In this document: one piece after another, positions 9,333 through 32,000 of the stretch | How positions within the stretch are numbered: position 1 is the first letter of the stretch | Layout: each line of letters starts with the position of its first letter | Position numbers and translations under genes: made by a program | Assembly (NCBI GenBank): GCA_031389045.1 | Contig: JANMSE010000539.1 | Span: forward strand, 1,846 to 33,845 | DNA length: 32,000 bases | DNA from: Deltaproteobacteria bacterium | GTDB lineage: Bacteria > Desulfobacterota > Binatia > Bin18 | Direction: 5' to 3' | Notes under the pieces: generated by a model | Database searches by the model: none | Seen by the model: only the letters and a program-made list of their open reading frames with translations | What the model was told of the DNA's origin: nothing

Positions 9333-9361
9333 ATGTGGAAAAGATGAAATTCTCGTGACAA
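9333..9361 (-). promoter_or_regulatory. Pho-box-like array upstream of the PhoX-like gene
   Basis: Minus strand reads TTGTCAC-gaga-ATTTCAT-cttt-TCCACAT, three units phased at exactly 11 bp (6/7, 5/7 and 3/7 matches to CTGTCAT/C). It lies about 97 nt upstream of the ATG. Confidence 0.45.
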
Positions 9362-9383: not shown

Positions 9384-10367
9384 TTAGGCCGCTCCCTCAA
9401 GGCTGGGGACTCGTCGTGGCGTGATGGGGAGGCAAACTCGGAACGTCGAACCGCGTCCGACTTCGCTCTCAACCGTGATAGTGCCGCCCAGCAATTCGAG
9501 CAAACGCTTCACAATGTGTAACCCCAATCCCGTGCCTCCGTACCGGCGCGAGTCCGAGCCGTCGAGTTGTCGGAAGGGCTCAAAAATCACCGCCAATTTC
9601 TCCTGGGGAATTCCGATTCCGGTATCCGTCACGCTGATCTCTACTCCTTCTTGATAGCGCTGGGCCGTGACGGTGATGCTTCCGCGCTCGGTGAACTTCG
9701 CCGCGTTGCTCAGCAGATTCTTGAGCACCAATTTGAGATTCTTGGCGTCGGTGAGGACCGGTCGCAGGTCGGGGGCGCTCTGCCACACACACCTCAGGCC
9801 AGAGAGCTCCCATAACTCACGGGTTTCATGCTCCAGTTCCTCGAACAGCTTCGGCACTAAAACTTCTTTCACATTGAGACTCGTGCTGTTGGTCTCCAGG
9901 CTCCGGAGCTTCAGCAAGTCAGAGATAAATTCGAGCTGGACGGAAGCGTTTTTGTGAATTTTGCCTACCGCGTCGGCTTGTTCGGAGGTGAGAGGCCCAA
10001 AGGTCCCGGCACTCAACATTTCACCATAGCCCAGGATAATGCTGAGCGGGGTCCGCAGCTCGTGTGAGATGGTCGCCACGAACTCAGATTTGGCCCGGTT
10101 TGCGACCTCAGCCGCTTCCTTGGAGACGAGTGTTGCCTCCAACTGCGTCGCCATCTGGTTAAATTGCATGGCCAGCTCGGTGAACTCGTCCCGCCCTGTG
10201 ATCGCGAGACGATGCCGGAGGTCACCTTGGCCAATGGTGAAGACCCCCTGCATCAAATCTTTCAAGGGGGTGTGGATACCGCGGATAAGGAGGAAACTCG
10301 CGCCCACCCCACTGAGGAGGAAAGCGAGGAGCAAGACGGCGAGTCGCCACAGAGCGCGCTCTACCAC
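9384..10367 (-). CDS. Sensor histidine kinase, C-terminal part (TM2-HAMP-HisKA-HATPase_c)
   Basis: H-box SHELRTPL, N-box LLSNAAKFT, G-boxes DTGIGI and GGTGLGL. The GTG-started ORF overlaps the upstream sensor ORF by 146 nt in another frame. Confidence 0.8.
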   Translation of the reverse strand: MVERALWRLAVLLLAFLLSGVGASFLLIRGIHTPLKDLMQGVFTIGQGDLRHRLAITGRDEFTELAMQFNQMATQLEATLVSKEAAEVANRAKSEFVATISHELRTPLSIILGYGEMLSAGTFGPLTSEQADAVGKIHKNASVQLEFISDLLKLRSLETNSTSLNVKEVLVPKLFEELEHETRELWELSGLRCVWQSAPDLRPVLTDAKNLKLVLKNLLSNAAKFTERGSITVTAQRYQEGVEISVTDTGIGIPQEKLAVIFEPFRQLDGSDSRRYGGTGLGLHIVKRLLELLGGTITVESEVGRGSTFRVCLPITPRRVPSLEGAA

Positions 10368-11238
10368 GTGCGTCGCCTCTTGCTCCGCCGCTTGCAGCTC
10401 GTGTTGGGGTCAACGCTTGAATATGGTCATCCAGGAGGTCGTCGAGCTGGCCGCGGAGGACGAGGAACTGCTGGATTCCGGCTTGCAACTGGTCGTCCGC
10501 CGCGAGCATCTCCTGAATCCGAGACAGGATTTGTGGGAAGAGGGTTTCCAGCTCGCCAACCCAGCGCCGTTCTTCCTCAGTCAGACGGAGTCGGCTCAAG
10601 ACGGCGAGGTGCGTTTGAAAGTCAGTGGCATTGTCAAAAATCCGCGTGTGGTAGTCTCGCTGGTGCGTCCGCAGGTAGTGACCAAGCCACGTGCCAACCT
10701 CGGCGCTATCCGCCTCCAGAGACACGGACTCTTCAATTTTTTGCTGTCCGTCTGGTCCTATCCGGTCGATGTGGGCCTGGAAGCGATCATCAATGATATC
10801 GTCGAGCGTATCAAAGTTGATGGCCACGGTCGCGAAGAGTTTTTCCTGCTGATCCTTACGGTCCATCAGCGTCTGCCCAAGCGTGCGAAACTCTCGGTAG
10901 AGCGCCTCGACCTGCTCTCCGAGGGTTTTGCTCCGCGCGGTCTGGCTCAAGCCGTTGTACTGGGCGTGGAAGTGGGCAAAGTCCGCCGTATCCTTGGCCA
11001 CACGGTCCCGATATTTGGGGTCCCCGGTATCCAGATACTTTAAGACTCCCAGGCCGGTACCAATGACGTTGATCTCCATTTCATACGCAGCGGCGCTGGT
11101 TGGTTGCCTCACATTGGTGACCTCATATAGCGCCTGCTCGACTGTCCTGAGCGCCTGATAGATCACCGCGATCGTCCCGAGGCCGATGAGCAAAATCAGC
11201 GTGACCCCTAGAAAAATCCTCTTCGTGATTGTCATCAC
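10222..11238 (-). CDS. Sensor histidine kinase, N-terminal part (TM1 plus a helical periplasmic CHASE3/4HB-like sensor); the frame is lost near 10400-10415
   Basis: N-terminal TM (IFLGVTLILLIGLGTIAVIY) followed by about 270 aa of helical sensor. The last roughly 60 codons are Arg/Pro-rich nonsense. The kinase frame upstream of 10367 reads PQHELQAAEQEATHVVERALW, continuous in sense with ...LDDHIQAL. Confidence 0.7.
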   Translation of the reverse strand: MMTITKRIFLGVTLILLIGLGTIAVIYQALRTVEQALYEVTNVRQPTSAAAYEMEINVIGTGLGVLKYLDTGDPKYRDRVAKDTADFAHFHAQYNGLSQTARSKTLGEQVEALYREFRTLGQTLMDRKDQQEKLFATVAINFDTLDDIIDDRFQAHIDRIGPDGQQKIEESVSLEADSAEVGTWLGHYLRTHQRDYHTRIFDNATDFQTHLAVLSRLRLTEEERRWVGELETLFPQILSRIQEMLAADDQLQAGIQQFLVLRGQLDDLLDDHIQALTPTRAASGGARGDARGRARSVATRRLAPRFPPQWGGREFPPYPRYPHPLERFDAGGLHHWPR

Positions 11239-11932: not shown

Positions 11933-12069
11933 GGGGGAGGGATGAGAGGCTTGTAGTGTAAGCGGGCTCCGTTACGCGAGGATGACAGACTCGTGAAAGT
12001 TTGGTGGAAAAAATGTCACGGTCGCCGCGTCGTGGAGCAGTGACATGAAGTTCGTGAGTTTCAAGGTCC

Positions 12070-12253: not shown

Positions 12254-12793
12254 TTATTGCTCGAAATAGGCACCAGCAAGGTAATAGATCGTTTGCAGAG
12301 CCGGCAGCAAATACCAGTCGTCATGCGGAAAGCGCATGGCGAGGAAAAAGCCCCAGATGGAGAATAACGTGCCCACGTACTGGGGGTGGTTGAGCAGCGA
12401 AAAGGGGAACTCGCGACACCACGGGACCCGATACCCAAACTTATTGCCATAAAAGACTCCGACCTTGCCCAACCGATAGAACACGCTGAAGTTGAGAAAC
12501 TGTCCGGCGATGATCGCCGCCGTTCCCACCGTGAGGACAACGAAGTCTCGGCTCATCAACGACGGGAGGAGTCCATACCCGTGGAGATAGCACCACCCGA
12601 AAAACACCGCGAGTTGAATCCCCTTGAAGCAAAAAAAGAGTTTCTGTAGGACAGAAACCGGGTCCCCCAAAGCCATCACTCTCGGACGGGCGCAAAAGGC
12701 CCGAAAGGACTCGGGCGCACGCCACGCCCAGACGTAACACACGCGTTCGAGGCTCAGTAAGACAGCGGCAACCACAAAGGCCCAGAGACTCAT
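12254..12793 (-). CDS. PEMT-family (phospholipid / isoprenylcysteine-type) membrane methyltransferase
   Basis: Start placed at MSLWAF (ATG 12793), which forms an ATGA overlap with the upstream gene's stop. 179 aa with about 4 TM segments. C-terminal motif: LLNHPQYVGTLFSIWGFFL. Confidence 0.8.
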   Translation of the reverse strand: MSLWAFVVAAVLLSLERVCYVWAWRAPESFRAFCARPRVMALGDPVSVLQKLFFCFKGIQLAVFFGWCYLHGYGLLPSLMSRDFVVLTVGTAAIIAGQFLNFSVFYRLGKVGVFYGNKFGYRVPWCREFPFSLLNHPQYVGTLFSIWGFFLAMRFPHDDWYLLPALQTIYYLAGAYFEQ

Positions 12794-15120
12794 AGCGCTG
12801 CTCCTTTCCGCGCCTGCAACGCCTGCACGAGTCGAGAAGGGCTGGTGTAGTACGCCGCGATGTCGGTGAACGGATCGGTGGCCAGTTTCACGAACCAAAT
12901 CATCGCACTGCGAAAATCGTGCTCCCACACGAGATAGGAGACGTGTCCCAGGACAACCGCTCCCGTCAACAGAAGCCATTGCCACGCGACCGTGGGGGTG
13001 ACCGCGGCGAGCGTCTCCCACGTCGCCGACCCAGCACTTACTAGATGCAGGACAGGAATCAGGAGATACGCGGCGACAATGATCGTTTTCTTACGGGTGT
13101 TCAGCCCCAGGAGCAATTTCTCCTTGTCATGGCATGGTGGCTCGAGGATGGCATGACCAAGCTGCCGCACAAACAGCGCGGCCAACCCTAGCGACATCGC
13201 CAGAGTGAGGTTCGAGAAAATCAAAAAATAACAATAAATAAACACGCTGGAACTGAGCAAGTGGAAAAATTGGTTAATCAGGTTGCTATGCGAAGCGACG
13301 TGGTCATCGTGCTTGCGCTCCATGATCTCCGTATAAAAACTCTTCAGAGGCTGGGGCACCCGCAACGCGGGAACCCGCACTGCGGGAACCCGTACCAGAC
13401 TCCCGAGCATTTCTCGAATGAGATGTGAACGCATGATCTTCTCCCTCCCTGGGTGTTGTTCTTCGCTTAACCACCACGCATCGCTCTGCATCGTTCGCGC
13501 CGCGCGTAGCAGCTTGTCCTGTAACTCTTGATAATCGGCCTCCGTGAAATCCAAACTACTCAGACAGCGACCCGTGCCGACCCAACTCAGCGTGACCCCC
13601 TCCGCGCGCAGGTAGTATTGCAGGAGCCAGTTGTAGCGACTCGGTTCCTTGAAGAGCACGGTCCAGACCGTGCCGAAATGCACGATCCGCAGTGGCAACG
13701 AGGAGGCGGCGAGTTGCTGATTGGTCGCGAGCACCCATTGCGCGCACCGTTGTTTGGCTGTGTCGTACACCTGCGCCGTGTCCGGCTGCGTGACCCAACG
13801 CAAGAACTCATTCATGGCGCCCATGACCAGCGGATGCGCGGAGAACGTGCCAATCACATACGCGATGCGCATCGGGTGCTCGCTATCAAACCGCTTCATC
13901 AGCTCCCGCTTGCCGCACACCACGCCGATGGGCATCCCCCCGGCCACCGTTTTGCCGTAGACGACCACATCCGCCTGCACGCCAAAATACGCTTGCGCGC
14001 CGCCGGGGGCGAGGCGAAAACCGGTGTACACTTCGTCGAAGATCAGCGGGATGTCACAGGCCGTGCACACTGCGCGCAGTGTCCGCAACCATTCAGCGTA
14101 GGAGGTGGAGGAATCCTCGGTTTTGCGCACGCCACTCATGAGTAACACGGTATCACTCGGAGGTGGTGAATTAGGGTGGAACGATTGCACCGGATTGATG
14201 AGCACGGCGGCGATCTCTTTGGCCCGCCACCGAATAAGGTCGAGCGAGGCCGGATGGACGTCCTTGAGCGTGAGACAATCGTTCAGCTCGCGCTCACTGC
14301 CCAGTCCGGCCTGCACGCCATCCCACCAGCCATGATACGCCCCGGAAAAGCAGACGATCAATTTGCGGCGGGTATTGAACCGCGCCATCCGCACGGCGGC
14401 CATCACCGCTTCGGTGCCGCTCATGTGGAACGACACTTCATCCATACGCGAGATGGATTTGAGCAGGGTAATGTTTTCCGCCACCACCGGGTGGAGTGGC
14501 CCCAATACCGGCCCCAAGTCCTTTACCTGCTCCCACCCCTTTTGCATCCACTCCTTGTAGCGGTCGAACCCCGCGACATTGAGGCCATACGAGCCGCTCA
14601 CATCTAAGGTCCAATGCCCATCGAGATCACGTAATTTCGGACCTGCCGACGCGGTCACGACCGAGCAGAGGCTGAATTTTTCACGCATCAGGCGCATAAA
14701 TGGAAACGGTACCCGATTGGCATCAGTGAAACGCAAATCCGAGAAGCTCTCGCGAATCTCATTGCCCCAGGCGATCGAACGCGCATAGTGCGTCTGGAAA
14801 AAACTGGCCAATCGGTCGAGGGCCTGTTTACGCAGCGCCACCCAGCGCTCCCCGCCGCCGTCCGCCCGGACAAACTCCTCGTCCGAATAGGCATACGACT
14901 TCACCCATGTGGACAACCGCCGGGAGACCGTCGGTGCCAGTGCCAGCGCCCGCAGGGTCATCACCGCCGTGACCAGCTTGCGCCCCACGACAACGACGAC
15001 GCACAGCACGCACAGCAGCCCCAGCGTAAGCCAGGCATTCCCCCATTCTACGGTGGAAATCCCTGTCGCGTGCGGGAGCCATTCCGCACCCGTGTGTCGC
15101 AGCCACTCAGTCAGTTTCAT
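12790..15120 (-). CDS. Fusion protein: N-terminal TM anchor, class-III (glutamate-1-semialdehyde aminomutase-like) PLP aminotransferase, and a C-terminal Mpo1/DUF962-like membrane domain
   Basis: 776 aa. Aminotransferase motifs: HMSGTEAVMAAVRMAR, FSGAYHGWWDG, FDEVYTGFRLAPGGAQAYFGV, YGKTVAGGMPIG (Lys). C-terminal SHSNLINQFFH and LGHAILEP match the HxNxxNxxxH and GHxxxE signatures of DUF962/Mpo1. Confidence 0.85.
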   Translation of the reverse strand: MKLTEWLRHTGAEWLPHATGISTVEWGNAWLTLGLLCVLCVVVVVGRKLVTAVMTLRALALAPTVSRRLSTWVKSYAYSDEEFVRADGGGERWVALRKQALDRLASFFQTHYARSIAWGNEIRESFSDLRFTDANRVPFPFMRLMREKFSLCSVVTASAGPKLRDLDGHWTLDVSGSYGLNVAGFDRYKEWMQKGWEQVKDLGPVLGPLHPVVAENITLLKSISRMDEVSFHMSGTEAVMAAVRMARFNTRRKLIVCFSGAYHGWWDGVQAGLGSERELNDCLTLKDVHPASLDLIRWRAKEIAAVLINPVQSFHPNSPPPSDTVLLMSGVRKTEDSSTSYAEWLRTLRAVCTACDIPLIFDEVYTGFRLAPGGAQAYFGVQADVVVYGKTVAGGMPIGVVCGKRELMKRFDSEHPMRIAYVIGTFSAHPLVMGAMNEFLRWVTQPDTAQVYDTAKQRCAQWVLATNQQLAASSLPLRIVHFGTVWTVLFKEPSRYNWLLQYYLRAEGVTLSWVGTGRCLSSLDFTEADYQELQDKLLRAARTMQSDAWWLSEEQHPGREKIMRSHLIREMLGSLVRVPAVRVPALRVPQPLKSFYTEIMERKHDDHVASHSNLINQFFHLLSSSVFIYCYFLIFSNLTLAMSLGLAALFVRQLGHAILEPPCHDKEKLLLGLNTRKKTIIVAAYLLIPVLHLVSAGSATWETLAAVTPTVAWQWLLLTGAVVLGHVSYLVWEHDFRSAMIWFVKLATDPFTDIAAYYTSPSRLVQALQARKGAAL

Positions 15121-15122
15121 CT

Positions 15123-16448
15123 CTACATCCTCCTTTCCACGGTTCCGTGGTCAAACCTCGATGGGGTAGCAAAAAGTTGGGGCGCGGGATGATGTGAACC
15201 ACACGCTTCCGTCAGCAGCGTGGCGAACTGTTCCACGATACTCGACCAGTCAAAAGCGACGATGTGCTCACGTGCCTGTCGTCGTATCCGGAGGAGCGAC
15301 CACGGCTCACGCACGAGCGTGGCGGCGGAGTCGACGAAGGCGGTCGCGTCTCCATACGGGGCCAGCAGCCCAGTTTCGCCATGACGAATGTGCGCATGGG
15401 CCGCGGCGTAGTCATAGGCGAGCACCACCAACCCGCTGGCCATCGCTTCCAGCGTGACATTGCCAAAGGTTTCCGTTTCACTCGGAAAAAGAAAAATATC
15501 CGCCGACGCATAATGGGTCGCGAGCGGCTCACCGGTCTGGAGCCCAGCGAAGATGAGATCGGGATGGGTGTTCTGAAGGCTGGCGCGCAGGGGGCCATCC
15601 CCGACGATGACACACGTGACCGCACCCCCGCGCCGCCGCATGGCGTGGTAGGCCGTGATCGCAAGGGGGACATTTTTCTCGGGCGCGAGCCGCCCCACGG
15701 ACAACACCACCAGGTCGTGCTCCGTCACGCCCCACTGCGCCCGGAGTTCCGCGCACCGACGTGCCGGAGTGAACCGGTGGCTGTCCACGCCGCGGCCGAG
15801 AACCGAGACATTGCGGACGCCAAGGGTATGGAGGCGGTCGCGCTGATCGCTACTCGGGACCAACGTCCCGTGCGTGCGGTTATGAAAGCCGCGCAGGTAG
15901 CGGAAAACCAGAGGTTGCAACCAGCCCACGCGATAGTACGTGGAGTAGCTGTGGAAGTTTGTATGAAAACCGCTGACGACCGGAATGCCAAGCCGCCGTG
16001 CACTGGACAGCGCGGACCATCCCAGCGGTCCTTCCGTCGCCACATACACCACATCGGGTCGGTGTCGGGCCCACGCACGACGCAACGCGCGTCCCGCCGG
16101 CAGGCCAAACTGCATGCCCCCAGACCCAGGCAACGGGAGGCCATGAACCAGGGTCACCGCTGAGTCGCGGTGCCCGCCGGCACCATCCGCCAGCCGCTGC
16201 CGTGGCCGCACCACGGACACCGTGTGCCCGCGCGTACGGAGTCCTTTCACCAGATGGGATAAGGTGAGCGCGACGCCGTTAATCTCCGGGGGATAGGTTT
16301 CACTGACGATGCTGATATGTCGCGGCTGGAACGCGCGCTGGGGGGACTCGATCCGTACCGAAGCCGGAGGCTGGTTCAACGCAATCGGCAAGCGAAGAGC
16401 ATCGTGAACGAAAGAAGAATTTTGCACTTGTGAGTATTCCTCCAACAC
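15123..16448 (-). CDS. GT4-family (glycosyltransferase group 1) enzyme, SqdX/Agt-like lipid glycosyltransferase candidate
   Basis: Start moved to GTG 16448, preceded by agaGGAGGggcggct. N-terminus ISIVSETYPPEINGVALT. C-terminal FLFPSETETFGNVTLEAMASGL (EX7E region). Its stop abuts the ATG of the next gene with no intervening bases. Confidence 0.85.
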   Translation of the reverse strand: MLEEYSQVQNSSFVHDALRLPIALNQPPASVRIESPQRAFQPRHISIVSETYPPEINGVALTLSHLVKGLRTRGHTVSVVRPRQRLADGAGGHRDSAVTLVHGLPLPGSGGMQFGLPAGRALRRAWARHRPDVVYVATEGPLGWSALSSARRLGIPVVSGFHTNFHSYSTYYRVGWLQPLVFRYLRGFHNRTHGTLVPSSDQRDRLHTLGVRNVSVLGRGVDSHRFTPARRCAELRAQWGVTEHDLVVLSVGRLAPEKNVPLAITAYHAMRRRGGAVTCVIVGDGPLRASLQNTHPDLIFAGLQTGEPLATHYASADIFLFPSETETFGNVTLEAMASGLVVLAYDYAAAHAHIRHGETGLLAPYGDATAFVDSAATLVREPWSLLRIRRQAREHIVAFDWSSIVEQFATLLTEACGSHHPAPQLFATPSRFDHGTVERRM

Positions 16449-16493
16449 AGCCGCCCCTCCTCTACATGATTTCGCATAGCGTAGTCTCACATT

Positions 16494-16544
16494 GTTACAT
16501 GCTGTTGTTCCTCGCTTGAAATTTGCGTGACGCGCGTGTGACCG
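16494..16544 (-). promoter_or_regulatory. Pho-box-like array oriented toward the GT4 operon
   Basis: Minus strand reads CGGTCAC-acgc-GCGTCAC-gcaa-ATTTCAA-gcga-GGAACAA-cagc-ATGTAAC. Five units with 11-bp phasing, scoring 6/7, 5/7, 4/7, 2/7 and 5/7. Confidence 0.45.
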
Positions 16545-16564
16545 CGATCCACGGATTCTTCATC

Positions 16565-16609
16565 CTTTCATCTCCGTTTCACACGGGTGTCATTGTTCTC
16601 CGCTATATG
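16565..16609 (+). promoter_or_regulatory. Pho-box-like array plus a -10 element oriented toward the 16663 operon
   Basis: CTTTCAT-ctcc-GTTTCAC-acgg-GTGTCAT (6/7, 5/7, 6/7; 11-bp phasing), then exactly 10 bp to TATATG (16604..16609). This is the classical Pho promoter geometry, where the box replaces the -35. Confidence 0.6.
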
Positions 16610-20769: not shown

Positions 20770-20825
20770 ATCCTACGTGGCGGAGGTTACACCACCATGA
20801 CAGTGCGGAGACATCTTTATGACAG
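20770..20825 (-). promoter_or_regulatory. Best Pho-box array in the window, with a -10 element
   Basis: Minus strand reads CTGTCAT-aaag-ATGTCTC-cgca-CTGTCAT-ggtg-GTGTAAC (7/7, 5/7, 7/7, 5/7; exact 11-bp phasing), then 10 bp to TAGGAT (20775..20770). It is about 62 nt upstream of the 20735 ATG and in the shared intergenic region with the GDPD gene. Confidence 0.7.
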
Positions 20826-24252: not shown

Positions 24253-24292
24253 GTGAACGGATGACGAGGTCCGTATGAAATGTTCGTGACGG
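24253..24292 (-). promoter_or_regulatory. Weaker Pho-box-like array upstream of the 5'-nucleotidase gene
   Basis: Minus strand reads CCGTCAC-gaac-ATTTCAT-acgg-ACCTCGT-catc-CGTTCAC (6/7, 5/7, 3/7, 5/7), phased at 11 bp. The proximal unit is 76 nt from the ATG. Confidence 0.35.
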
Positions 24293-24360: not shown

Positions 24361-24413
24361 AGGGAGGGAGGACACGGCAAGTCCCGATGTGTCCGCCTGT
24401 CGCGTGATGGGAT

Positions 24414-26018: not shown

Positions 26019-26058
26019 ATCCCACCACTGTGACAAAATGATGACCAGTTCACGACAT
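26019..26058 (-). promoter_or_regulatory. Pho-box-like array upstream of the phytase-like gene
   Basis: Minus strand reads ATGTCGT-gaac-TGGTCAT-catt-TTGTCAC-agtg-GTGGGAT (5/7, 5/7, 6/7, 4/7) with exact 11-bp phasing. The proximal unit is 76 nt from the ATG. Confidence 0.5.
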
Positions 26059-26091: not shown

Positions 26092-26334
26092 TCAGTGGAA
26101 ACCAGGAGGTCGGCTCCCATTCTCCCGTGATTTTCTCCTGTCCACCGAGATGGCGGTACAGGTCCCGAGCTCTCCTTTGTGAGAGACTCGCTGCCGCCAC
26201 ACGATGCCGCCGACTTCCACGAAGACCGCCCATCCGTCGCGGCCTTCTGGACGGATACTCGCGACGCGCACGCGTTGACCTAAAGTGGCTTCCAATCGAT
26301 TTTCGACCAGGAGGATGACTTCACTTGTTGTCAT
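26092..26334 (-). CDS. Small hypothetical protein (80 aa) with a faint GvpO-like motif
   Basis: Start taken at MTTSEV (tGGAG about 10 nt upstream). The DGWAVFVEV...KGEL pattern recalls the DGW-x-V-x-VEV...GEL core of GvpO-type proteins, but this is weak. Confidence 0.4.
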   Translation of the reverse strand: MTTSEVILLVENRLEATLGQRVRVASIRPEGRDGWAVFVEVGGIVWRQRVSHKGELGTCTAISVDRRKSRENGSRPPGFH

Positions 26335-26606
26335 ATTTGAGTACTCCAGTATTTTCGCGGCCGTGCTCATTTCCTATTGGGGAACAAGGGGAGAGAAGGC
26401 TGCCGCTCATTCCTCAGCAACCTTCTCCGGTTGAGAGGCGCGCATTGGGATTGCGGCCTCGGGGGAGGGGAGAGGGTCGTGAAGAAGTATGCCGGCGGAG
26501 TGTTACCGGATGATGAAGGGAAGATGAAGAATCGATCTTATTTCGCGAGTGGCTGGGTTTTTCGTTGCCACGCTGGGGAAGGCGGTGGAACGGGGGAAAT
26601 ATCCGG

Positions 26607-27194
26607 TCATCCTTCTCCGCGCTCAGTATGAAGGTAACGGTCGTTGAAATCCGCGACGAGTTGTTCGCAGAGGTGCTGGATACGATGGCGGGACCCGATA
26701 CGCAGCCAGGTGCCGCGAAACGCCTCGACCGGCGCGGAGGCCGGGGCGAGGAGCGACGCGCTCCGCACAGAGTCCCGCACTTGCTGGGTAACGGTTTTGG
26801 TCACTACCGCGGATAACGCGATCCCAGAGGTTTTTCCATTCGGCGATTGGATCGGCACCCCAAGGACGATGAGGGTCCAGTCCGCTTCTGCTTGTACAAG
26901 GTGTACGTAGGGGAAAGCACTCAGGGCCTGTGCGACATGCTCTTCCACCTCGTGTGCCATATCTTCGCCCGCGGTGACTGTCAGTTTGATCCGAACGGAG
27001 GATGGCGCGGGTTCTCCGACCGCGGGTGGGGGAAACAACGCGGTGAAGGGGTCCGCCGTGGAGGCAACACCCGCTTGGTCCGTCGCGGGGAGAGTCGGGT
27101 CAGCGGACGGGTTCTTTGCTCGCGCCGGTGTCGGGGAGCGTTCGTGCGACTCTCGGTCAGCCAACAGGTCTGGGGTTTTCTTGCGTTTCGCCAT
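26607..27194 (-). CDS. Hypothetical protein (195 aa): basic N-terminal peptide, Pro/Ala-rich disordered linker, globular C-terminal domain; ParA-partner-like layout
   Basis: SD GGAGAG 9 nt upstream. N-terminus MAKRKKTPDLL, then low-complexity P/A/S/T sequence. It overlaps the 3' end of the ParA-like ORF by 38 nt. Confidence 0.6.
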   Translation of the reverse strand: MAKRKKTPDLLADRESHERSPTPARAKNPSADPTLPATDQAGVASTADPFTALFPPPAVGEPAPSSVRIKLTVTAGEDMAHEVEEHVAQALSAFPYVHLVQAEADWTLIVLGVPIQSPNGKTSGIALSAVVTKTVTQQVRDSVRSASLLAPASAPVEAFRGTWLRIGSRHRIQHLCEQLVADFNDRYLHTERGEG

Positions 27195-27447
27195 CTACGA
27201 TTCTCTCCGTCAGTTGTTGATAGTCCAGCGCACCAGACGAGCCTGGCGCGTATTCATAGATGGTCTGCCCACACCCAGGTGCTTCGGAGAGACGCACGCT
27301 GTAGCGGATGGGTTGACAGAGTTGCACCTCGTAATGCGCGTGGAGTTGTTGCAAAACCTCCTGTGATTTCTTCACGCGCCCGTCAAGAAAGGTGGGGACA
27401 ATCTTGCCCACGCCCCCTTTCGTCAGAAAAACCGCGATCTTTCTCAT
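27157..27447 (-). CDS. Mini ParA/MinD-like protein (96 aa); P-loop fused in frame to the C-terminal segment, ATPase core missing
   Basis: MRKIAVFLTKGGVGK (deviant Walker A) is joined directly to IVPTFLDGRVKKSQEVLQQL...IRYSVRLSEAPGCGQTIYEYAPGSSGALDYQQL, matching the ParA C-terminus (IPRNVRLSEAPSxGxPI..YD). About 130 aa, including Walker A' and Walker B, are absent. Confidence 0.7.
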   Translation of the reverse strand: MRKIAVFLTKGGVGKIVPTFLDGRVKKSQEVLQQLHAHYEVQLCQPIRYSVRLSEAPGCGQTIYEYAPGSSGALDYQQLTERIVDGETQENPRPVG

Positions 27448-27451
27448 TGCT

Positions 27452-27712
27452 TCAGGCCGCCGCGCCGTTGCCGGTCGTGTATTCCGCTTTCGCTTCAGCG
27501 ATGAGGTCCTCCACCTGTTCGCCCCCTTCAGCCACGAGAGTCTGGAGTGTGTCGGTCAGCAAGAGCCCGCCTTGGATCGCCAATTTCGCCACTGGACGGA
27601 CCACCGCGCCGACCACAGGCAACAACACGGGAATTGCCATCACCGCACCCAAGCCAAGGAGCACTGGCCCCCCCCATCCACTAAGCACGAGAATATCTTC
27701 AAGCAGTGCCAT
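27452..27712 (-). CDS. DUF5132-type small membrane protein (86 aa)
   Basis: MALLEDIL..GPVLLGLGAVMAIPVLLPVVGAVVRPVAKLAIQGG, then an acidic amphipathic helix (EQVEDLIAEAKAEY). It is a paralog of the 29904..30179 product. Its stop is 4 nt before the ParA-like ATG. Confidence 0.8.
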   Translation of the reverse strand: MALLEDILVLSGWGGPVLLGLGAVMAIPVLLPVVGAVVRPVAKLAIQGGLLLTDTLQTLVAEGGEQVEDLIAEAKAEYTTGNGAAA

Positions 27713-27725
27713 TAATCTCCCCCCT

Positions 27726-27765
27726 TTATCACGAAAATTTCATATAATTGTCATGCGCGTGCAAT
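27726..27765 (+). promoter_or_regulatory. Pho-box-like array, plus orientation, in the divergent control region
   Basis: TTATCAC-gaaa-ATTTCAT-ataa-TTGTCAT-gcgc-GTGCAAT (5/7, 5/7, 6/7, 4/7) with exact 11-bp phasing, in an AT-rich patch. It is more than 200 nt upstream of the 27972 start. Confidence 0.45.
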
Positions 27766-27849
27766 ATCCCATCAGGCTCCCCAACGCGATAGCTCGTGAA
27801 CCGACTTATTGCCTACCGAGGGACTTCTGTGCAAAGAGTGATGCCTCCT

Positions 27850-27889
27850 GTTGCAGGATTATTACCTTTTTATGACACAAGTGTGACAA
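27850..27889 (-). promoter_or_regulatory. Pho-box-like array, minus orientation, in the divergent control region
   Basis: Minus strand reads TTGTCAC-actt-GTGTCAT-aaaa-AGGTAAT-aatc-CTGCAAC (6/7, 6/7, 4/7, 5/7), phased at 11 bp. An AATAAT -10-like hexamer overlaps unit 3. It is about 160 nt upstream of the 27712 start. Confidence 0.5.
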
Positions 27890-27971
27890 CACAATCGACC
27901 CTCGCACCGCTGTTCGCGGACACGAGCTGAACATGGTACACCTCGTCGAGGCCATATAAGGAGTGACATAT

Positions 27972-28163
27972 ATGACGGATCCCTTTCCATCTCAACAAGA
28001 TCATCGCGAAGAGACCGAGAACAAAGCCGAGCAAATCGCTTCGTATCTCAGGCACAAACCTCAAGACTTAATCGATATCAAACGCTTAATGCACCGTTTT
28101 TGCGCGTCAGCGAAGGATTTCCAAAGAGCGTTCGTGCTCTTGGAACAACCGGTGAGGAACTAA
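27972..28163 (+). CDS. Small hypothetical helical protein (63 aa)
   Basis: AAGGAG 8 nt upstream of ATG 27972. It is the first gene of the plus-strand operon. No family recognised. Confidence 0.55.
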   Translation: MTDPFPSQQDHREETENKAEQIASYLRHKPQDLIDIKRLMHRFCASAKDFQRAFVLLEQPVRN

Positions 28164-28193
28164 TCAGGCGGGACGCGAGTCAGGAGCGAGGAT

Positions 28194-29078
28194 ATGGCTG
28201 AAAAACAACGGAGAAAAAGAAAACCCCTTGTCCACGCGCCAAAACCTGCGCGACGAGGCGTAGTGCCGCCACTGTCCGTAGAGACCGCGGCTACGGCGGA
28301 GGACAGCCCTACGGTAGACGAGAGAGGCAGTGGCGAAACAGCGTACGACAAACGGATGGCGAGTGTAGATATCTCTTCCCAAGAGGAGGAGGCACTGGCC
28401 GGGGTGCTACGGATATCCGATGTCACCCAAGAAACAGATGTGAGTACTATTACTGATGAAAGGAGAAGTGTTATGGCGCAGAGAAGCGAGACCATGAATG
28501 AAAGCGGGATTACCAGCACTGGAACCGCCCTTAGGGACGGGGTTGTTGATAGCCTCAAGGGCATCAATGAAATCGGCACCGAACTGGTCGACTTGGTTGG
28601 CAATACCCTGTCGGGAACACTGCGAACGACCGGAGTAGTGGCAAGAGATGGTCTCTCGGTTGCCAAGGATGTGGTCGTGGGAGCGGTGCAGACCGTTGCC
28701 GATGTCGGGACAGGACTGACAACGCATGCCAAGAATGTGGCAAGAGGAGTGGTGACAGGCGTGGGTGAAGTGGGAGGAGACGTGGTCGACGTGGCTCAGC
28801 AGACCGTCAAGGGCGTCATTACCGGAGTCGCTGACCTGGGTGCCATGGTCGGCGACGTCGCCGGGCGGGCCGCGCTCGGAACAGTCGCGGTCGCGCAAGA
28901 AATTGGCGGCAATGTCGGAGGATTAGCGCGCTCAACGGTCGAAGGCACACTCGAAGCCGCCGATGCGATTGGCAGGGCGGCGGTGAAAACCGCGACGCAT
29001 CTCCTTGTGTCCGTGGTCGGCGGCGTCAAAGAGGTGCTCAGCGCCGCGTTGCCGCGAGCCAGCGCGTCGAGAGAGTAA
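28194..29078 (+). CDS. Repeat protein (294 aa): basic N-terminal peptide, acidic linker, and about eight 22-residue (2x11) G/V/A-rich amphipathic repeats
   Basis: SD AGGAGcgAGGAt-ATG. N-terminus MAEKQRRKRKP. Repeats include VAKDVVVGAVQTVADVGTGLTT / HAKNVARGVVTGVGEVGGDVVD / VAQQTVKGVITGVADLGAMVGD. It is collinear with the 31321..31968 product. Confidence 0.75.
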   Translation: MAEKQRRKRKPLVHAPKPARRGVVPPLSVETAATAEDSPTVDERGSGETAYDKRMASVDISSQEEEALAGVLRISDVTQETDVSTITDERRSVMAQRSETMNESGITSTGTALRDGVVDSLKGINEIGTELVDLVGNTLSGTLRTTGVVARDGLSVAKDVVVGAVQTVADVGTGLTTHAKNVARGVVTGVGEVGGDVVDVAQQTVKGVITGVADLGAMVGDVAGRAALGTVAVAQEIGGNVGGLARSTVEGTLEAADAIGRAAVKTATHLLVSVVGGVKEVLSAALPRASASRE

Positions 29079-29275
29079 TCGTCCATTCGTTGATATGGAG
29101 ACGATGTCGTCATGCCCGCGCAGGCGGGTGTGACGCTTCTCCGGGCCACCCCGCACAATCATAGATTCCCTCTCACCTTTTCATCATCTTGTAACAAAGC
29201 CGACACCTTCAGATAACCTAAAGCTGCGATGCTGCTATCGTGGTCTTAGGAACATTCCTGAAAGGAGTCCGCAGC

Positions 29276-29656
29276 GTGAGTGACGCATCTTCTTATATCC
29301 ATCATGCTTTAGAAGGTCGGCTCCGCGTTAAAAGCGCTTTGGTCAAGGGGTCGTGGCGGAAGGCGCGAGAGGTGGAGGCGTATTTCCAGCACCGTGATGG
29401 GATCTCCGAGATTTCAGCGAATCCCACGACCGGGAGCGTGCTGTTTTACTACGACGCGCAACGCCTCAGTCAACGAGAGATTGTAGCCGAGTTGTCCGCT
29501 GGCGGATATTTGGCGCCCAGTGAGCATTTCCAGCCGCATCACCTGGTGCCGGTGACGGTGAAAACCTCCAAAGCCTCGGGCCAGAGCCTCGTGGCCACCA
29601 TTGTCACCTCCACCGTGGAAACCGCGCTCCAGTTGCTCGTGCACGCGCTGATCTAA
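29276..29656 (+). CDS. HMA2-like (heavy-metal-associated-like, ferredoxin-fold) protein, cysteine-free (126 aa)
   Basis: Start moved to GTG 29276 (AAAGGAG 8 nt upstream). Signature: HHALEGRLRVKSALVKGS...ISEISANPTTGSVLFYYD. There is no Cys anywhere in the protein. Confidence 0.7.
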   Translation: MSDASSYIHHALEGRLRVKSALVKGSWRKAREVEAYFQHRDGISEISANPTTGSVLFYYDAQRLSQREIVAELSAGGYLAPSEHFQPHHLVPVTVKTSKASGQSLVATIVTSTVETALQLLVHALI

Positions 29657-29903
29657 CCCAGTGGAGAGGAACCCTACGACCGCAGACGGCCGGCGCAGTC
29701 GCCTGCGCCGTTCTTTTCTGTCAAGCCGCGGCCCCCGGCTTTTCCCCTTTCCTACTGAGTCAGCAGCCCACAACCAACCTCCCTCCCAATACATCGAAAC
29801 TCGACTCATTGATTCTCACGCCGGAATGCCGCATAAAGCATCCCTTGGTCAATGTTACATTTTTGTTGCAGTGAGATGAACTTGCTGTGACATCGGAAGG
29901 AGG

Positions 29904-30179
29904 TTGCTCATGGCGTTACTTGGTGACGTATTTGGTAATTTGGGAGGAGCGGTGCTGATCGGTATCGGTGCGGCGTTGGTGGCTCCCCTGTTGCTCCCCG
30001 CGGCTGGGGCAATACTCCGCCCCGTGGTCAAAGGGGTGATCAAAGGAGGATTCCACCTCGCGGACACCCTTCAGGAAGTGCTCGCCGAAGGGAGTGAACA
30101 ACTGAGTGACCTGATGGCGGAAGTCCAGGCGGAACGGGCCGCGTCAGTGGCGGCAACACTGCGGACTACAGAACAATGA
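29904..30179 (+). CDS. DUF5132-type small membrane protein (91 aa)
   Basis: SD GGAAGGAGGttgctcATG. MALLGDVFGNLGGAVLIGIGAALVAPLLLPAAGAILRPVVKGVIKGG, then an acidic helix (EQLSDLMAEVQAE). Its stop overlaps the next start (ATGA). Confidence 0.85.
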   Translation: MLMALLGDVFGNLGGAVLIGIGAALVAPLLLPAAGAILRPVVKGVIKGGFHLADTLQEVLAEGSEQLSDLMAEVQAERAASVAATLRTTEQ

Positions 30180-30721
30180 CCCGCGAAGGCATCACGGTCG
30201 TTCATGCCATTCCTGGCCGCATTCGGCTGAAGATCGCCAGCCTGCGCGATAACTCGACGCTCGCCAGCGAACTCCAACACCGACTGGTCGCGATTCAGGG
30301 CGTGAAGCAGGTCGAGACCAATCCGCGGACCGGCAGCGTCCTCATTCTCTACGATGCGGCGGCAATGGCTTCACCCGAAGCGTTGCTCACGCTGGCCGCG
30401 CCGCTCTCGCAACTCTTCCCAGGGCTGGATCTCAAGGATTTGCCGGCGTGGGCCTCCTCCACAAATGGTGCGCATCCCACTCCGTCCCTCGCCCAAAGCG
30501 TGGCTGGCTTTTTCGGGTCTCTCAACCAGAAGATCGACACCGCCACCGGCGGGGTCGCGGACCTCAAGATTTTGCTCCCACTGGGGCTCTTTCTCTTCGG
30601 CATCAGATCGCTGCTGTCGTCCGAAAAGCGTGCCATCCCGACGTGGTACGACTTCTTCTGGTTCGCGCTCGGCACCTATTTCATGATGCATCCGAAGCCG
30701 GGCGAGAAGACCCCACCCTGA
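30176..30721 (+). CDS. HMA2-like domain protein with a C-terminal membrane anchor (181 aa), cysteine-free
   Basis: VVHAIPGRIRLKIASLRDNS...VKQVETNPRTGSVLILYD, followed by two hydrophobic segments (ILLPLGLFLFGIRSLL; WYDFFWFALGTYFMM). Confidence 0.8.
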   Translation: MTREGITVVHAIPGRIRLKIASLRDNSTLASELQHRLVAIQGVKQVETNPRTGSVLILYDAAAMASPEALLTLAAPLSQLFPGLDLKDLPAWASSTNGAHPTPSLAQSVAGFFGSLNQKIDTATGGVADLKILLPLGLFLFGIRSLLSSEKRAIPTWYDFFWFALGTYFMMHPKPGEKTPP

Positions 30722-30824
30722 TTCCCCGCGCTGAGAAGCGCCTGTTGTCCTGGGCCTCCGGCAACCATAACCCCTTTGCCAGCGTTTGCTGCTTCAACAC
30801 TGTAACAATACTTGGGGGAACTCC

Positions 30825-31091
30825 ATGCACGATGCGTACTTCAAATTCCGGGTTGGGGACATCGTCACCCATAAGGGGTTTCTCTATCCGCGCCGACAAC
30901 CCGTCGTGCAGCGTTTCGAGATTGTCGGACAAACGCTGGTGGCCTGCCCTGGCGCGGTTCAGCGGTTTTATTACATCCGCACCGTGGGCGAGCCGGAGCA
31001 ACATGAGACCACACACGGGGCCACGCTCCGCGTGGAGGAATCGAGTCTGTCGCCTTTACCTGATGACGAAGTTGAAAGTCGCGCGGCCTAA
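30825..31091 (+). CDS. Small hypothetical protein (88 aa), probably beta-rich
   Basis: Start taken at MHDAYFKFRVGDIV (gggggaa upstream). No family recognised. Confidence 0.45.
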   Translation: MHDAYFKFRVGDIVTHKGFLYPRRQPVVQRFEIVGQTLVACPGAVQRFYYIRTVGEPEQHETTHGATLRVEESSLSPLPDDEVESRAA

Positions 31092-31149
31092 CGCGATCAG
31101 GAGGCGTTTACTACAGCGGTTTGCACTTGAACGAAGAGAGAAAGAAAGT

Positions 31150-31179
31150 AGGCCGGAATAAGCGGAGCGTTTCCGGCCT
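31150..31179 (+). terminator. Hairpin between the 88-aa gene and the second repeat-protein gene
   Basis: aggccggaa-N12-ttccggcct (9-bp perfect stem). There is no U-tract, so its function is uncertain. Confidence 0.35.
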
Positions 31180-31320
31180 GTACGCTCGCGCCGGGAACGG
31201 CCTACGGCCTTATCCCGGCCTACCGAAAGAGATGTCTCCTCGCTCCAATGAAAACCGCTGCATTGATATGTTTTTCACAATTTTCCCAGTCGCGAGGCTG
31301 GAGCAGAAAGGGAATCAGTA

Positions 31321-31968
31321 ATGACAACAGAAGAAAGTGGGTACGGCGAGGAGATCGCCGAGAGAATCGGTCAGACCGGAACCGCCGTGAAAGATGGCAT
31401 CATTGGCAGTCTGCGTGGTCTCAATGAAATCGAGGCCGAGATTGTCAGCCTCGTGCGCAACTCGGTTTCTCACGCGTTGCGAGCGACCGGTGCCGTGGCG
31501 ACCGATGGGGTCACCGTGACGCGCGACGTGGTCAAAGGCGCGTTGCAGGCGACCGAGGAAGTCGGCGCGGGACTGACGGTTGGCGTCAAGAGTGTCGCCA
31601 AGGGCGTCATCATGGGCGTGAGCGATGTTGGCGGTGATGTCCTGAACACCGCTTATCATGTCGTGAAAGGCGTGGTGGCGGGCGCGGCGGAGGTTGGTGC
31701 CGATGTTGGCGTGGTCGCCAGTCGTGCGGTGCAGGGTGTCGTTGAAGCGACCAAGGAAATCGGCGGCAATGTGGGCACTGTCACCCAAGCGGCGGTCGCC
31801 GGCGCTCTCGCCGGCGCTGGGGCCATCAGTACCAACGCCGTCCAGGTCGTTCGCGATCTGATGATTGGTGTTGTCGAAGGTGTGTTCACGGTGGCGTCCG
31901 CCGCGTTGCCACGATCATCCAGGGCTGCCTCAGCAATCGCGGAAGCCGGAGAGCAGCAGGCCGCGTAG
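31321..31968 (+). CDS. Repeat protein paralog (215 aa) with about seven 22-residue amphipathic G/V/A-rich repeats
   Basis: Collinear with the 28194..29078 product: GTAVKDGIIGSLRGLNEIEAEIVSLV aligns with GTALRDGVVDSLKGINEIGTELVDLV, and ...ASAALPRSS aligns with ...LSAALPRAS. It lacks the basic and acidic N-terminal extension. Confidence 0.75.
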   Translation: MTTEESGYGEEIAERIGQTGTAVKDGIIGSLRGLNEIEAEIVSLVRNSVSHALRATGAVATDGVTVTRDVVKGALQATEEVGAGLTVGVKSVAKGVIMGVSDVGGDVLNTAYHVVKGVVAGAAEVGADVGVVASRAVQGVVEATKEIGGNVGTVTQAAVAGALAGAGAISTNAVQVVRDLMIGVVEGVFTVASAALPRSSRAASAIAEAGEQQAA

Positions 31969-32000
31969 TGTTTCCTGGGAGCACAGGCGTCTCGCCGGCA

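Follow-up and report, generated by a model that had tools for sequence, protein, structure and literature searches.

What two divergent operons of small genes do at the end of a phosphate-starvation island is the question raised by the locus described here. It lies at positions 26,092 to 31,968 of a stretch of 32,000 nucleotides (nt) from a Deltaproteobacteria bacterium (GTDB lineage Desulfobacterota; Binatia; Bin18; assembly GCA_031389045.1, contig JANMSE010000539.1), and this whole stretch is called the window in the following. An earlier note, made from the sequence alone, had listed eleven small proteins (DUF5132 and HMA2-like proteins, repeat proteins, a ParA-type module and orphans) and had proposed a toolkit for a bacterial organelle or inclusion. 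Our analysis suggests that the region may well be the accessory and organising part of a Pho-controlled pump system for Ca2+ (possibly Mn2+), a reading towards which we lean with modest conviction. We rate the cluster as an apparent P-type pump operon combined with an uncharacterised cross-phylum accessory module and with lineage-specific scaffold and positioning genes.

Gene content of the cluster and the pump gene behind it

Open reading frames (ORFs) for the eleven proteins were found at the expected positions (Table 1). An independent gene call on the public contig L001 (GCA_043751455.1), which is identical to this part of the window and extends ~600 nt past its end, gave sizes of 80, 195, 96, 86, 63, 294, 126, 89, 181, 88 and 215 amino acids (aa), and thus the gene set listed earlier stands. 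For ten of the genes, the three orphans among them, orthologues occur in an unchanged order on related metagenome contigs (loci L005-L012 and L095). Synteny in other genomes had been named beforehand as a check; the conserved, ordered unit found here implies that the ten ORFs are genes and not chance ORFs. At the position of the eleventh gene, which encodes a 96-aa ParA remnant, the relatives encode a full-length ParA. The best named relatives are metagenome-assembled genomes (MAGs) of Binatia with 60-62% identity. The full Binatia-type cluster was also seen, with 57% identity, in a contig labelled 'uncultured Enterobacteriaceae' (L012, CAZUFQ010000055.1), a bin which is probably mislabelled.

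Pfam profiles called two DUF5132 and two HMA_2 proteins, all above the curated cut-offs, in agreement with the domains guessed from the letters. The three paralogue pairs were also recovered, with 54% identity between DUF5132 a and b, 37% over 70 aa (E=2e-11) between the 138-aa and 181-aa proteins carrying HMA_2 (called CoBaHMA below) and 52% over 185 aa (E=9e-50) between the repeat proteins. Ten cluster proteins, all except DUF5132 b, were compared with PADLOC and matched none of its models, and a reading as anti-phage defence was rejected for this reason. Searches for Rfam families and tRNAs returned none in the window.

According to the earlier note, no protein of the cluster has an enzymatic or transport signature. 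This is correct inside the window, but it is an artefact of the window edge, since the plus-strand operon continues into the gene of a P2A ATPase. In L001 this gene is located at 7813 and begins with the CoBaHMA-type motif VHVVPGRTRYKV, which is followed by Cation_ATPase_N sequence. The first 254 residues of the organism's own copy are contained in L001, and the class of the pump was read from full-length orthologues of 1027-1076 aa, which are present in the same gene order in L005, L007, L009, L094 and L095. Their domains are HMA_2, Cation_ATPase_N, E1-E2, Hydrolase and Cation_ATPase_C, with a borderline HMA_2 score of 29.2 bits (cut-off 30) for the orthologous N-terminus. Among solved structures, the Ca2+/Mn2+ pump SPCA1 comes closest (1e-149), followed by the Ca2+ pump LMCA1 of Listeria (1e-141) and by SERCA (1e-115). 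In an alignment of the L005 orthologue with SPCA1 and LMCA1, the residues of P2A pumps are conserved, namely DKTGT, PEGLP in M4, N/E in M5 and N..D in M6. Judged from these sequences, the plus-strand operon runs into the gene of a CoBaHMA-fused P2A ATPase of the calcium type (PMR1/SPCA/LMCA1-like), and the cluster has a transport core.

Small single-pass regulators of P2A pumps, such as phospholamban and sarcolipin, offer themselves for comparison. The alignment of the pump described here with SPCA1 and LMCA1 covers the full length, and the gene of a small membrane protein with one span accompanies the pump gene. In contrast to these pumps, the present one has an extra N-terminal CoBaHMA domain. 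The accessory proteins are unrelated to regulins, and a regulatory role is conjecture.

Directly 3' of the pump gene, metK encoding S-adenosylmethionine synthetase was observed in related loci (L005 10674-11921; L007 322-1554; L091 13898-15079; L094 13904-15115; L095 13924-15192), and in L094 and L007 its start overlaps the stop of the pump gene. Genes for divalent-cation transport were seen in or beside related clusters as well: TerC in L095 (8081-8761), CorA in L094 (15102-16103) and MgtE in L005 (12015-13007).

Table 1. Positions of the cluster genes and of the elements controlling them in the window.
Feature	Position	Strand	Remarks
Conserved small protein, 80 aa (92 aa if extended to 26370)	26092..26334	-	last gene of the minus-strand operon
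ParA-partner/adaptor candidate, 195 aa	26607..27194	-	basic N-terminal peptide MAKRKKTPDLLA, linker, C-terminal alpha/beta domain
ParA remnant, 96 aa	27157..27447	-	Walker A (KGGVGK) and last ~80 residues kept
DUF5132 protein a, 86 aa	27452..27712	-	first gene of the minus-strand operon; Pfam PF17195, 28.4 bits (cut-off 25)
Pho-box-like array A	27727..27765	+	four half-sites in 11-bp phase, TATCAC gaaaa TTTCAT ataat TGTCAT gcgcg TGCAAT; divergent control region
Pho-box-like array B	27861..27888	-	perfect TGTCAC-acttg-TGTCAT (0 mismatches, 27872-27888) and one more phased half-site
Conserved small protein, 63 aa (66 aa from 27963)	27972..28163	+	first plus-strand gene; no known domain
Long repeat protein, 294 aa	28194..29078	+	basic N-terminus MAEKQRRKRKP; acidic and disordered to ~residue 100; repeat domain of ~185 aa
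Stand-alone CoBaHMA (HMA_2) protein, 126-138 aa	29276..29656	+	Pfam HMA_2, 37.7 bits (cut-off 30)
GC-rich hairpin followed by T-run	29691..29710	+	possible terminator or attenuator between two transcription units of the plus strand
DUF5132 protein b, 89-91 aa	29910..30179	+	Pfam PF17195, 36.2 bits (cut-off 25)
CoBaHMA-hairpin membrane protein, 181 aa	30176..30721	+	Pfam HMA_2, 88.2 bits (cut-off 30)
Conserved small protein, 88 aa (extendable to 30786)	30825..31091	+	no Pfam match
Short repeat protein, 215 aa	31321..31968	+	alpha-solenoid domain alone; gene immediately before the ATPase gene
Spacer to the next operon gene	31969..32000	+	next gene starts at ~32051, ~50 nt past the window and ~80 nt after the 215-aa gene

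The association of DUF5132 and CoBaHMA with P-type pumps

For a scan across genomes, the alignment of the 181-aa CoBaHMA-hairpin family was used with one genome per species. Eighty of 226 loci were kept, of which 75 have a clear anchor gene, and the kept loci come from Binatia, Desulfobacterota-like MAGs, Magnetospirillum, Actinomycetota, Chloroflexi and many cyanobacteria. A DUF5132 gene is located directly upstream of the CoBaHMA-hairpin gene and on the same strand in 71 of the 75 species loci. A gene for a P-type ATPase was found at a distance of at most 6 kb from the CoBaHMA-hairpin gene in 66 of them, and both a pump and DUF5132 are present in 64. Nearly all of the associated pumps have an N-terminal CoBaHMA domain (70/74), and CxxC was found in a single one (1/74). 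The pumps are of the P2A class in Binatia-like organisms and in Magnetospirillum, and of the P1B class in cyanobacteria and in L015. Since the triad holds for both classes, the DUF5132/CoBaHMA pair seems to track CoBaHMA-fused pumps and not one ion. This suggests that DUF5132, the CoBaHMA-hairpin protein and the CoBaHMA-fused P-type pump make up a portable module for regulating or organising pumps in several phyla, and not a metal chaperone.

In an alphaproteobacterial locus, from a Magnetospirillum MAG (L087, 6258-10851), the genes of a CoBaHMA-containing P2A pump, of DUF5132 and of a CoBaHMA-hairpin protein were observed together with a separate CoBaHMA gene and a weak member of the repeat family (E=6e-9); the extended version of the cluster is thus not confined to the Binatia-like clade. 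A gene for a DUF3047 protein lies near the cluster in three relatives (L005 2395-3069; L008 8830-9504; L095 2688-3392), and this family had no match among the large window ORFs scanned with Pfam.

CoBaHMA corresponds to the Pfam family HMA_2 (PF19991). According to the literature, it was first described in calcyanin, and a conserved His before strand beta1 together with basic residues replaces the CxxC metal site. All three copies, in the 181-aa protein, the 138-aa protein and the pump (VHVVPGRTRYK), show this signature of His and basic residues without CxxC. In the stand-alone protein, which has orthologues in L005-L012 and contains no cysteine at all, it takes the form H-x4-G-R-x-R-x-K (motif IHHALEGRLRVK). 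In the CoBaHMA-hairpin family, comprising 74 homologue clusters, H10, A11, P13, G14, R15 and R17 are invariant (H10, R15 and R17 in 22 homologues; motif VVHAIPGRIRLK). Here the N-terminal CoBaHMA domain is followed by a conserved C-terminal pair of short hydrophobic helices, with the conserved motif D-L-K-x-L-x-P-L...W-Y-D-F-x-W-F.

These data bear on the possibility that the HMA-like proteins are heavy-metal chaperones and that the cluster is a metal-resistance operon. We found weak matches to classical HMA (E=0.005 and 0.16) and to a copper-chaperone model (E=0.019), and the associated pump of cyanobacteria is of the heavy-metal class P1B. On the other hand, CxxC is missing from the cluster proteins, the 138-aa protein cannot offer any cysteine, and only the one associated pump mentioned above has CxxC at its N-terminus. 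Further, the pump of this clade is P2A and not P1B, Pho boxes are the control sites, the cluster genes of the window were not seen to include one for a metal sensor, and the published definition of CoBaHMA is based on the basic residues at the place of the metal site. The chaperone reading was rejected for the lack of CxxC, and a metal-resistance operon is very improbable.

The charges of the two partners are opposite. The isoelectric point (pI) is 4.1 and 4.6 for the DUF5132 proteins and 9.3 for the CoBaHMA proteins. DUF5132 proteins have a hydrophobic N-terminal segment and then a long helix, in agreement with the published description of the family, and the acidic positions of this helix are conserved across 74 sequences. 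In DUF5132 a (pI 4.06), the segment is rich in Gly, Ala and Pro. We infer that the acidic helix of DUF5132 may be the partner of the basic patch of CoBaHMA. A published proposal is that the basic residues of CoBaHMA bind anionic lipids. The genes of DUF5132 b and of the CoBaHMA-hairpin protein overlap by an ATGA stop/start (gaacaATGAccc at 30176-30179), which confirms the translational coupling proposed earlier.

Upstream of this gene pair, the hairpin listed in Table 1 may divide the plus strand. The call is weak on its own because the total number of such matches equals that expected by chance. Precisely here, further DNA is inserted in relatives, namely PadR in L009, a two-component system in L095 and ~3 kb in L012. 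The small proteins without known domains are also kept in place. In L007, L008 and L009, an orthologue of the 63-aa protein (E=8e-17 to 2.7e-29) is encoded ahead of the long repeat protein, and orthologues of the 88-aa protein are encoded between the CoBaHMA-hairpin or long-repeat gene and the short-repeat or ATPase gene in L005, L007, L009 and L012 (E=2e-20 to 3e-32). The 88-aa protein has no sequence relative in the PDB.

The cluster matches no experimentally characterised system, and to this extent the statement that it corresponds to nothing described was right. It was incomplete, however, in that the set of two DUF5132 and two CoBaHMA genes flanks ccyA in Microcystis. In Microcystis aeruginosa PCC 7806, the neighbourhood of ccyA contains two DUF5132 genes, a CoBaHMA-hairpin gene, a further CoBaHMA gene and a Ca2+/H+ exchanger gene, which are co-localised and co-expressed; ccyA encodes calcyanin and is a marker of intracellular amorphous CaCO3 in cyanobacteria (bioRxiv 10.1101/2024.07.07.602159). 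The pairing of parts is the same as in the window at 29276-30721 plus 27452-27712. In Microcystis the genes share one strand with that of the Ca2+ transporter, and in our cluster a predicted Ca2+ transporter is encoded beside them. The two sets differ in that the exchanger and calcyanin are found there, whereas here a CoBaHMA-fused P2A ATPase and unrelated 22-residue repeat solenoids are present. Pho boxes and the ParA/adaptor operon distinguish the Binatia-type cluster from the Microcystis set, too.

A resemblance in logic exists to the ferrosome fez clusters, in which, as Grant et al. are reported to have described in 2022, an organelle for iron storage is built by a P1B-6 ATPase together with small membrane proteins. 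Common to both are an operon with a P-type ATPase, several tiny membrane proteins and induction by nutrient stress, which is predicted in our case. Pump class, regulon and accessory proteins all differ.

Repeat proteins, the ParA remnant and the idea of an inclusion

The two repeat proteins match no Pfam family. In the repeat domain of the 294-aa protein, eight helix-turn units of 22 residues were recognised, with autocorrelation peaks at lags 22 and 44, and the orthologues of this protein have the N-terminal motif MAEKxRRKR in common. The consensus of the unit is K-G-x-V-x-G-V-x-[DE]-V-G-G-[DN]-V-x2-A-A-x3-V; it is rich in Val, Ala and Gly and its charges are regularly spaced. An AlphaFold2 (AF2) model of the 215-aa protein, computed from an alignment of 29 sequences, has a predicted local distance difference test (pLDDT) value of 86.4 and a predicted template modelling score (pTM) of 0.77, and consists of nine antiparallel helices of 17-25 residues. 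By fold and by profile, de novo designed helical repeat proteins (DHR4 and others; PDB 5cwb, 6vfi) come closest to it in the PDB, with template modelling (TM) scores of 0.59-0.70, and no natural solved relative was found in these PDB searches. The designed proteins share the regular helix-turn-helix solenoid of the model. They are artificial, and the match shows the idealised alpha-solenoid fold only. Taken together, this gives a confident prediction of compact soluble alpha-solenoids with a period of 22 residues for the repeat proteins.

On this prediction they are not amphipathic coats like phasins or perilipins, and the earlier description of coat-like amphipathic repeat proteins has to be abandoned, in view of the period of 22 and not 11 residues, the predicted folded solenoids and the failed phasin thresholds. 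Neither repeat protein of the window matched Phasin_2. Among 29 members of the family, two had sub-threshold matches to Phasin_2 (best E=6e-4), one to CsmC (5e-5) and one to REF (0.09). A reading of the proteins as phasins or late embryogenesis abundant (LEA) proteins is therefore unsupported, given the curated thresholds and the confident folded model.

The family is large, since an exhaustive search (E<=1e-3) yielded 296 representative clusters (~300 at 50% identity). Its close members keep company with the pump. The short paralogue is encoded directly 5' of the ATPase in seven loci (L001, L007, L009, L012, L091, L094 and L095), and L005 is the one locus in which the long paralogue stands before the pump, with an 83-aa orthologue of the 88-aa protein encoded in between. 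Members with 48-65% identity are almost always encoded between the CoBaHMA-hairpin gene and the pump gene, and in P0100 a CoBaHMA-hairpin and a repeat domain form one continuous fusion. P0097, in which a repeat domain is fused to the N-terminus of the ATPase, looks like a frameshifted gene call and was excluded as evidence.

The more distant members open the possibility that the repeat proteins and the orphans serve in general stress or dormancy as LEA-like, membrane-protective proteins and share only the starvation promoter with the pump. Such members are encoded beside BON, MlaDE, HSP20 and a ribosome hibernation factor. Some are fused to CheY-like receiver domains (~303 aa; P0253, P0256, P0258-P0261, P0264, P0265, P0267 and P0270), and one of the receiver-fused type (L093, 8001-8912) is part of a GlgE/TreS/GlgB glycogen-trehalose cluster with Usp. 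The composition, with much Val, Ala and Gly and with regular charges, would also suit this purpose. Nevertheless, we consider the explanation improbable: the closer relatives are wedged between the CoBaHMA-hairpin and ATPase genes, one member is fused to a CoBaHMA-hairpin, and the confident model of a folded solenoid is unlike the disordered LEA proteins.

A relationship to calcyanin was also considered. W-type calcyanin combines CoBaHMA with (GlyZip)3, i.e., three mostly apolar G-x3-G zippers of ~50 residues with a central Gly-Pro (Benzerara et al. 2022; PMC8890360). In both systems CoBaHMA is combined with Gly/Ala-rich helical-hairpin repeats, which are located in one chain in P0100 and in the products of neighbouring genes here. 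The repeats of the window differ from calcyanin in that they comprise eight units of 22 residues with regular charges and without Gly-Pro. No homology between calcyanin and the repeat proteins of the window was detected, and a pattern scan of all fetched loci revealed no GlyZip-type proteins next to the module. The calcyanin reading of the repeat proteins was dropped because they do not correspond to the definition of GlyZip.

The minus-strand operon starts with DUF5132 a, the orthologues of which head the ParA operon in L007-L010, L012 and L095. The second gene had been described as encoding a mini-ParA. We found that it is the product of an internal deletion of a ParA which is intact in relatives: both retained ends have 84-88% identity to the orthologues of 246-252 aa, and ~160 residues between them are gone in the protein alignment. 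At the DNA level this corresponds to a single clean in-frame gap of 480 nt (~160 codons) with CAAG microhomology at both junctions. In Pfam and NCBIfam the remnant had sub-threshold NifH/CbiA-type matches only, in contrast to the orthologues of 246-252 aa, which match ParA/CbiA profiles. A complete P-loop core of the ParA/MinD type is not present in the 96-aa protein; without Walker A', Walker B and the switch regions, ATP hydrolysis should not be possible. Thus, by its sequence the 96-aa protein is a decayed ParA which is predicted to be inactive as an ATPase. In L007 the ParA gene is eroded even further. The proposed co-occurrence with a full-length ParA does hold in L008, L009, L010, L012 and L095, where an intact ParA gene, with a deviant Walker A motif in its product, overlaps the partner gene. 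The ParA-plus-partner module is therefore real in five relatives, but broken in this genome by the deletion in ParA.

The partner protein is conserved even where ParA was lost. Its family consists of 13 clusters, in the alignment of which the N-terminus MAKRKKTPDxLA is invariant, in line with the basic N-terminus noticed before, and the C-terminal domain is conserved. In the AF2 model, residues 66-190 have a pLDDT of ~90, the N-terminus is disordered and the linker has ~55 aa. The C-terminal domain gave weak matches to LptE/PelC only in a fold search (TM 0.2-0.5), and a DNA-binding domain was not recognisable by Pfam or fold search. The gene stands directly 3' of parA, overlaps it in five relatives and encodes a basic N-terminal peptide, as is usual for the partner of a ParA. 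The invariant N-terminus, the disordered linker and the predicted alpha/beta domain fit a ParA adaptor. The 80-aa protein, suspected to be an orphan of the same operon, has an orthologue 3' of the partner gene in L008 (E=3.9e-48), and no match was found for it in Pfam, NCBIfam or PADLOC.

Type Ib partition loci typically consist of a small ParA gene and the gene of a small, basic-tailed partner. ParA and the partner could accordingly have nothing to do with the genes around them and be what is left of a partition system of a plasmid or island, and the resemblance to this layout as well as the decay of ParA in this genome would agree with it. We regard this as hardly likely. In five genomic backgrounds, the operon of DUF5132, ParA and partner without exception diverges from the CoBaHMA cluster, a DNA-binding domain is missing from what could be recognised in the partner, and the partner is retained despite the loss of ParA. 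In addition, the only mobile-element gene near the related loci examined is a DDE_3 transposase in the distant L092, and none is near the syntenic clusters.

McdA-McdB is the ParA/MinD-type pair that positions carboxysomes as cargo, and a basic-peptide adaptor beside ParA is the usual layout of such positioning systems. The ParA of the relatives and the overlapping downstream gene of a partner with a basic N-terminal peptide and a disordered linker resemble McdAB; the alpha/beta domain of the partner has no counterpart among known adaptors, and ParA is deleted in this genome. This brings us back to the idea of the earlier note that the cluster builds and positions an intracellular inclusion or organelle, e.g., a store of amorphous Ca-carbonate or Ca-polyphosphate, which we judge unlikely. 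The pump might then load the store, the hairpin protein and DUF5132 might mark its membrane, the solenoids might be coat or matrix, and ParA with its adaptor might space the bodies along the nucleoid, all of which we hold to be doubtful. This idea can build on the pairing of ParA with the invariant basic adaptor in the divergent unit of five relatives, on the basic N-terminus of the long repeat protein, and on the location of DUF5132/CoBaHMA genes beside the marker of CaCO3 granules. The analogous layout of calcyanin, the P0100 fusion, the position of one relative's cluster beside ppx and the gene of a CHAD protein, and the weak Phasin_2, CsmC and REF matches of a few repeat members agree with it as well. 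However, ParA is destroyed here and eroded in L007, and L005, L087, L091 and L094 retain the other parts but have no ParA. The prediction for the repeat proteins is a compact and soluble solenoid, and they satisfy neither the GlyZip definition nor the phasin thresholds. Among the annotated genes of the window and the loci examined, there is no carbonic anhydrase, bicarbonate transporter or polyphosphate kinase. It is correspondingly a tentative thought that the cluster could be a ccyA-independent toolkit for an intracellular calcium store induced by phosphate starvation in Binatia-type bacteria of soil that have not been cultured, in which DUF5132 and CoBaHMA would be the core shared with cyanobacterial CaCO3 biomineralisation.

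Predicted Pho control, proposed mechanism and neighbouring genes

The window was scanned with the E. coli-type pattern TGTCAY-N5-TGTCAY (half-sites 11 bp apart), allowing up to two mismatches. With this pattern we obtained 25 Pho-box-like matches as compared to 7.2 +/- 2.7 in shuffled sequences, a 3.5-fold excess which none of 100 shuffles reached. Array A between the two operons consists of three overlapping matches, and after array B an AATAAT resembling a -10 element stands on the minus strand, with a promoter-like match at 27887->27858. Phased arrays recur in the orthologous divergent promoter of L009 (including a perfect match), L008 and L007, and boxes on the minus strand are also present in the promoters of L008 and L009. 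Other phased arrays of the window (9344-9360, 11971-11998, 16527-16593, 20786-20824, 24275-24291 and 26019-26057) are located upstream of PhoX, of the phytase-like protein and of other genes of the island, which encodes PhoX, a sensor kinase, a Metallophos protein, GDPD, a 5'-nucleotidase and a phytase-like protein. The match at 24275 is inside a long 5' extension of the 5'-nucleotidase ORF, the start of which is therefore probably further downstream than the GTG at 24375.

Relatives have the cluster in comparable surroundings. It adjoins pstSCA/ppx/CHAD in one of them and PhoU-PHO4/two-component/OprP/pstS in another, and further clusters adjoin PhoA/Metallophos, PhoR-PhoB-PhoU-pstBA or 5'-nucleotidase/GDPD, so that at least five phosphate contexts exist overall. 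The arrays and the recurrent phosphate genes together make the predicted Pho control of the cluster well supported, and the Pho-box-like arrays and the phosphate-starvation island pointed out before are thus substantiated by enrichment over shuffles and recurrence in relatives. A gene for a PhoB-type response regulator was not identified next to the sensor kinase of the window, and for this reason we do not claim phoBR for it.

The following mechanism is conceivable for the Pho-controlled pump system which we favour. Under limitation of inorganic phosphate (Pi), a PhoB-type regulator would bind both phased arrays and switch on both operons, as the motifs and the gene context suggest. The core would be a triad of the CoBaHMA-fused P2A pump, DUF5132, whose acidic helix is predicted to be cytoplasmic, and the hairpin-anchored CoBaHMA protein. 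By homology and by its conserved ion-site residues, the pump would export Ca2+ (possibly Mn2+) from the cytosol. The pump-fused, free and anchored CoBaHMA domains could form a regulatory or assembly network in which their basic patches bind the acidic helices of DUF5132 and/or anionic lipids, and the two alpha-solenoid proteins might dock on the membrane complex, for which the P0100 fusion can be compared. In relatives, ParA and the MAKRKK adaptor would distribute such assemblies in the cell. Since ParA is destroyed by the deletion in this genome, positioning is probably lost or dispensable here.

Several observations weigh against this mechanism. The top NCBIfam model of the pump, TIGR01522 (PMR1-type Ca2+-ATPase), scores 633 bits and does not reach the equivalog cut-off of 798 bits, which indicates a divergent P2A subgroup with a predicted substrate. 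The DUF5132/CoBaHMA pair accompanies P1B pumps, too, and is thus uninformative on calcium. The repeat proteins and the ParA/adaptor pair are absent from cyanobacterial and several other loci and possibly have a separate function, and distant repeat members are found among genes for stress or storage that have no relation to the cluster. The control regions of L005, L012 and L091 have weak Pho boxes or none, and the conserved metK gene after the pump finds no explanation in the model. Finally, ion specificity, direction of transport, induction under Pi limitation and all protein-protein contacts go beyond what can be read from the sequences themselves (operon continuity, pump class, the triad rule, the conserved acidic and basic surfaces, the Pho boxes and the ParA deletion) and are inferred.

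As to the physiological role, the predicted pump could clear Ca2+ which is freed as polyphosphate is consumed, it could supply Ca2+/Mn2+ to co-induced secreted metallophosphatases (PhoX, the phytase-like protein, the 5'-nucleotidase), or it could load a Ca-rich store. In the literature nothing relevant was found on Pho-regulated bacterial Ca2+-ATPases or on the phosphate biology of Binatia.

The findings are of interest for several reasons. So far, CoBaHMA and DUF5132 were domains of unassigned role, seen beside the marker gene for intracellular CaCO3 in cyanobacteria. New is the association of the triad with P-type ATPases, although the CoBaHMA paper of 2024 (Gaschignard et al., Proteins) may already note fusions to pumps. 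The Binatia-type version adds predicted Pho control, a natural alpha-solenoid family for which there is no Pfam model, and a ParA/adaptor pair of its own. Provided that the parts form one complex, the system would connect calcium handling with the starvation for phosphate in soil bacteria that are abundant and uncultured, and the intact versions (L009, L095) would be a tractable entry to the question of how bacteria compartmentalise calcium.

Further observations concern the neighbouring genes in the window. The sensor histidine kinase (9384-11238, minus strand) is apparently split over two overlapping frames: 9384-10367 corresponds to HAMP-HisKA-HATPase_c, and 10222-11238, which has no domain match, is maybe the sensor part. 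A frameshift or an assembly error may account for this. The region 12254-16490 (minus strand) of the phosphate island may hold genes for membrane lipids without phosphorus. It encodes a GT4 glycosyltransferase, a membrane protein of 776 aa that has a class-III aminotransferase domain, and a multi-pass protein of 255 aa in which, by eye only, a resemblance to lipid or isoprenylcysteine methyltransferases was noticed. A protein with a caspase domain (Peptidase_C14), unrelated to the cluster, is encoded at the opposite end of the window, at 2864-3709 on the minus strand.

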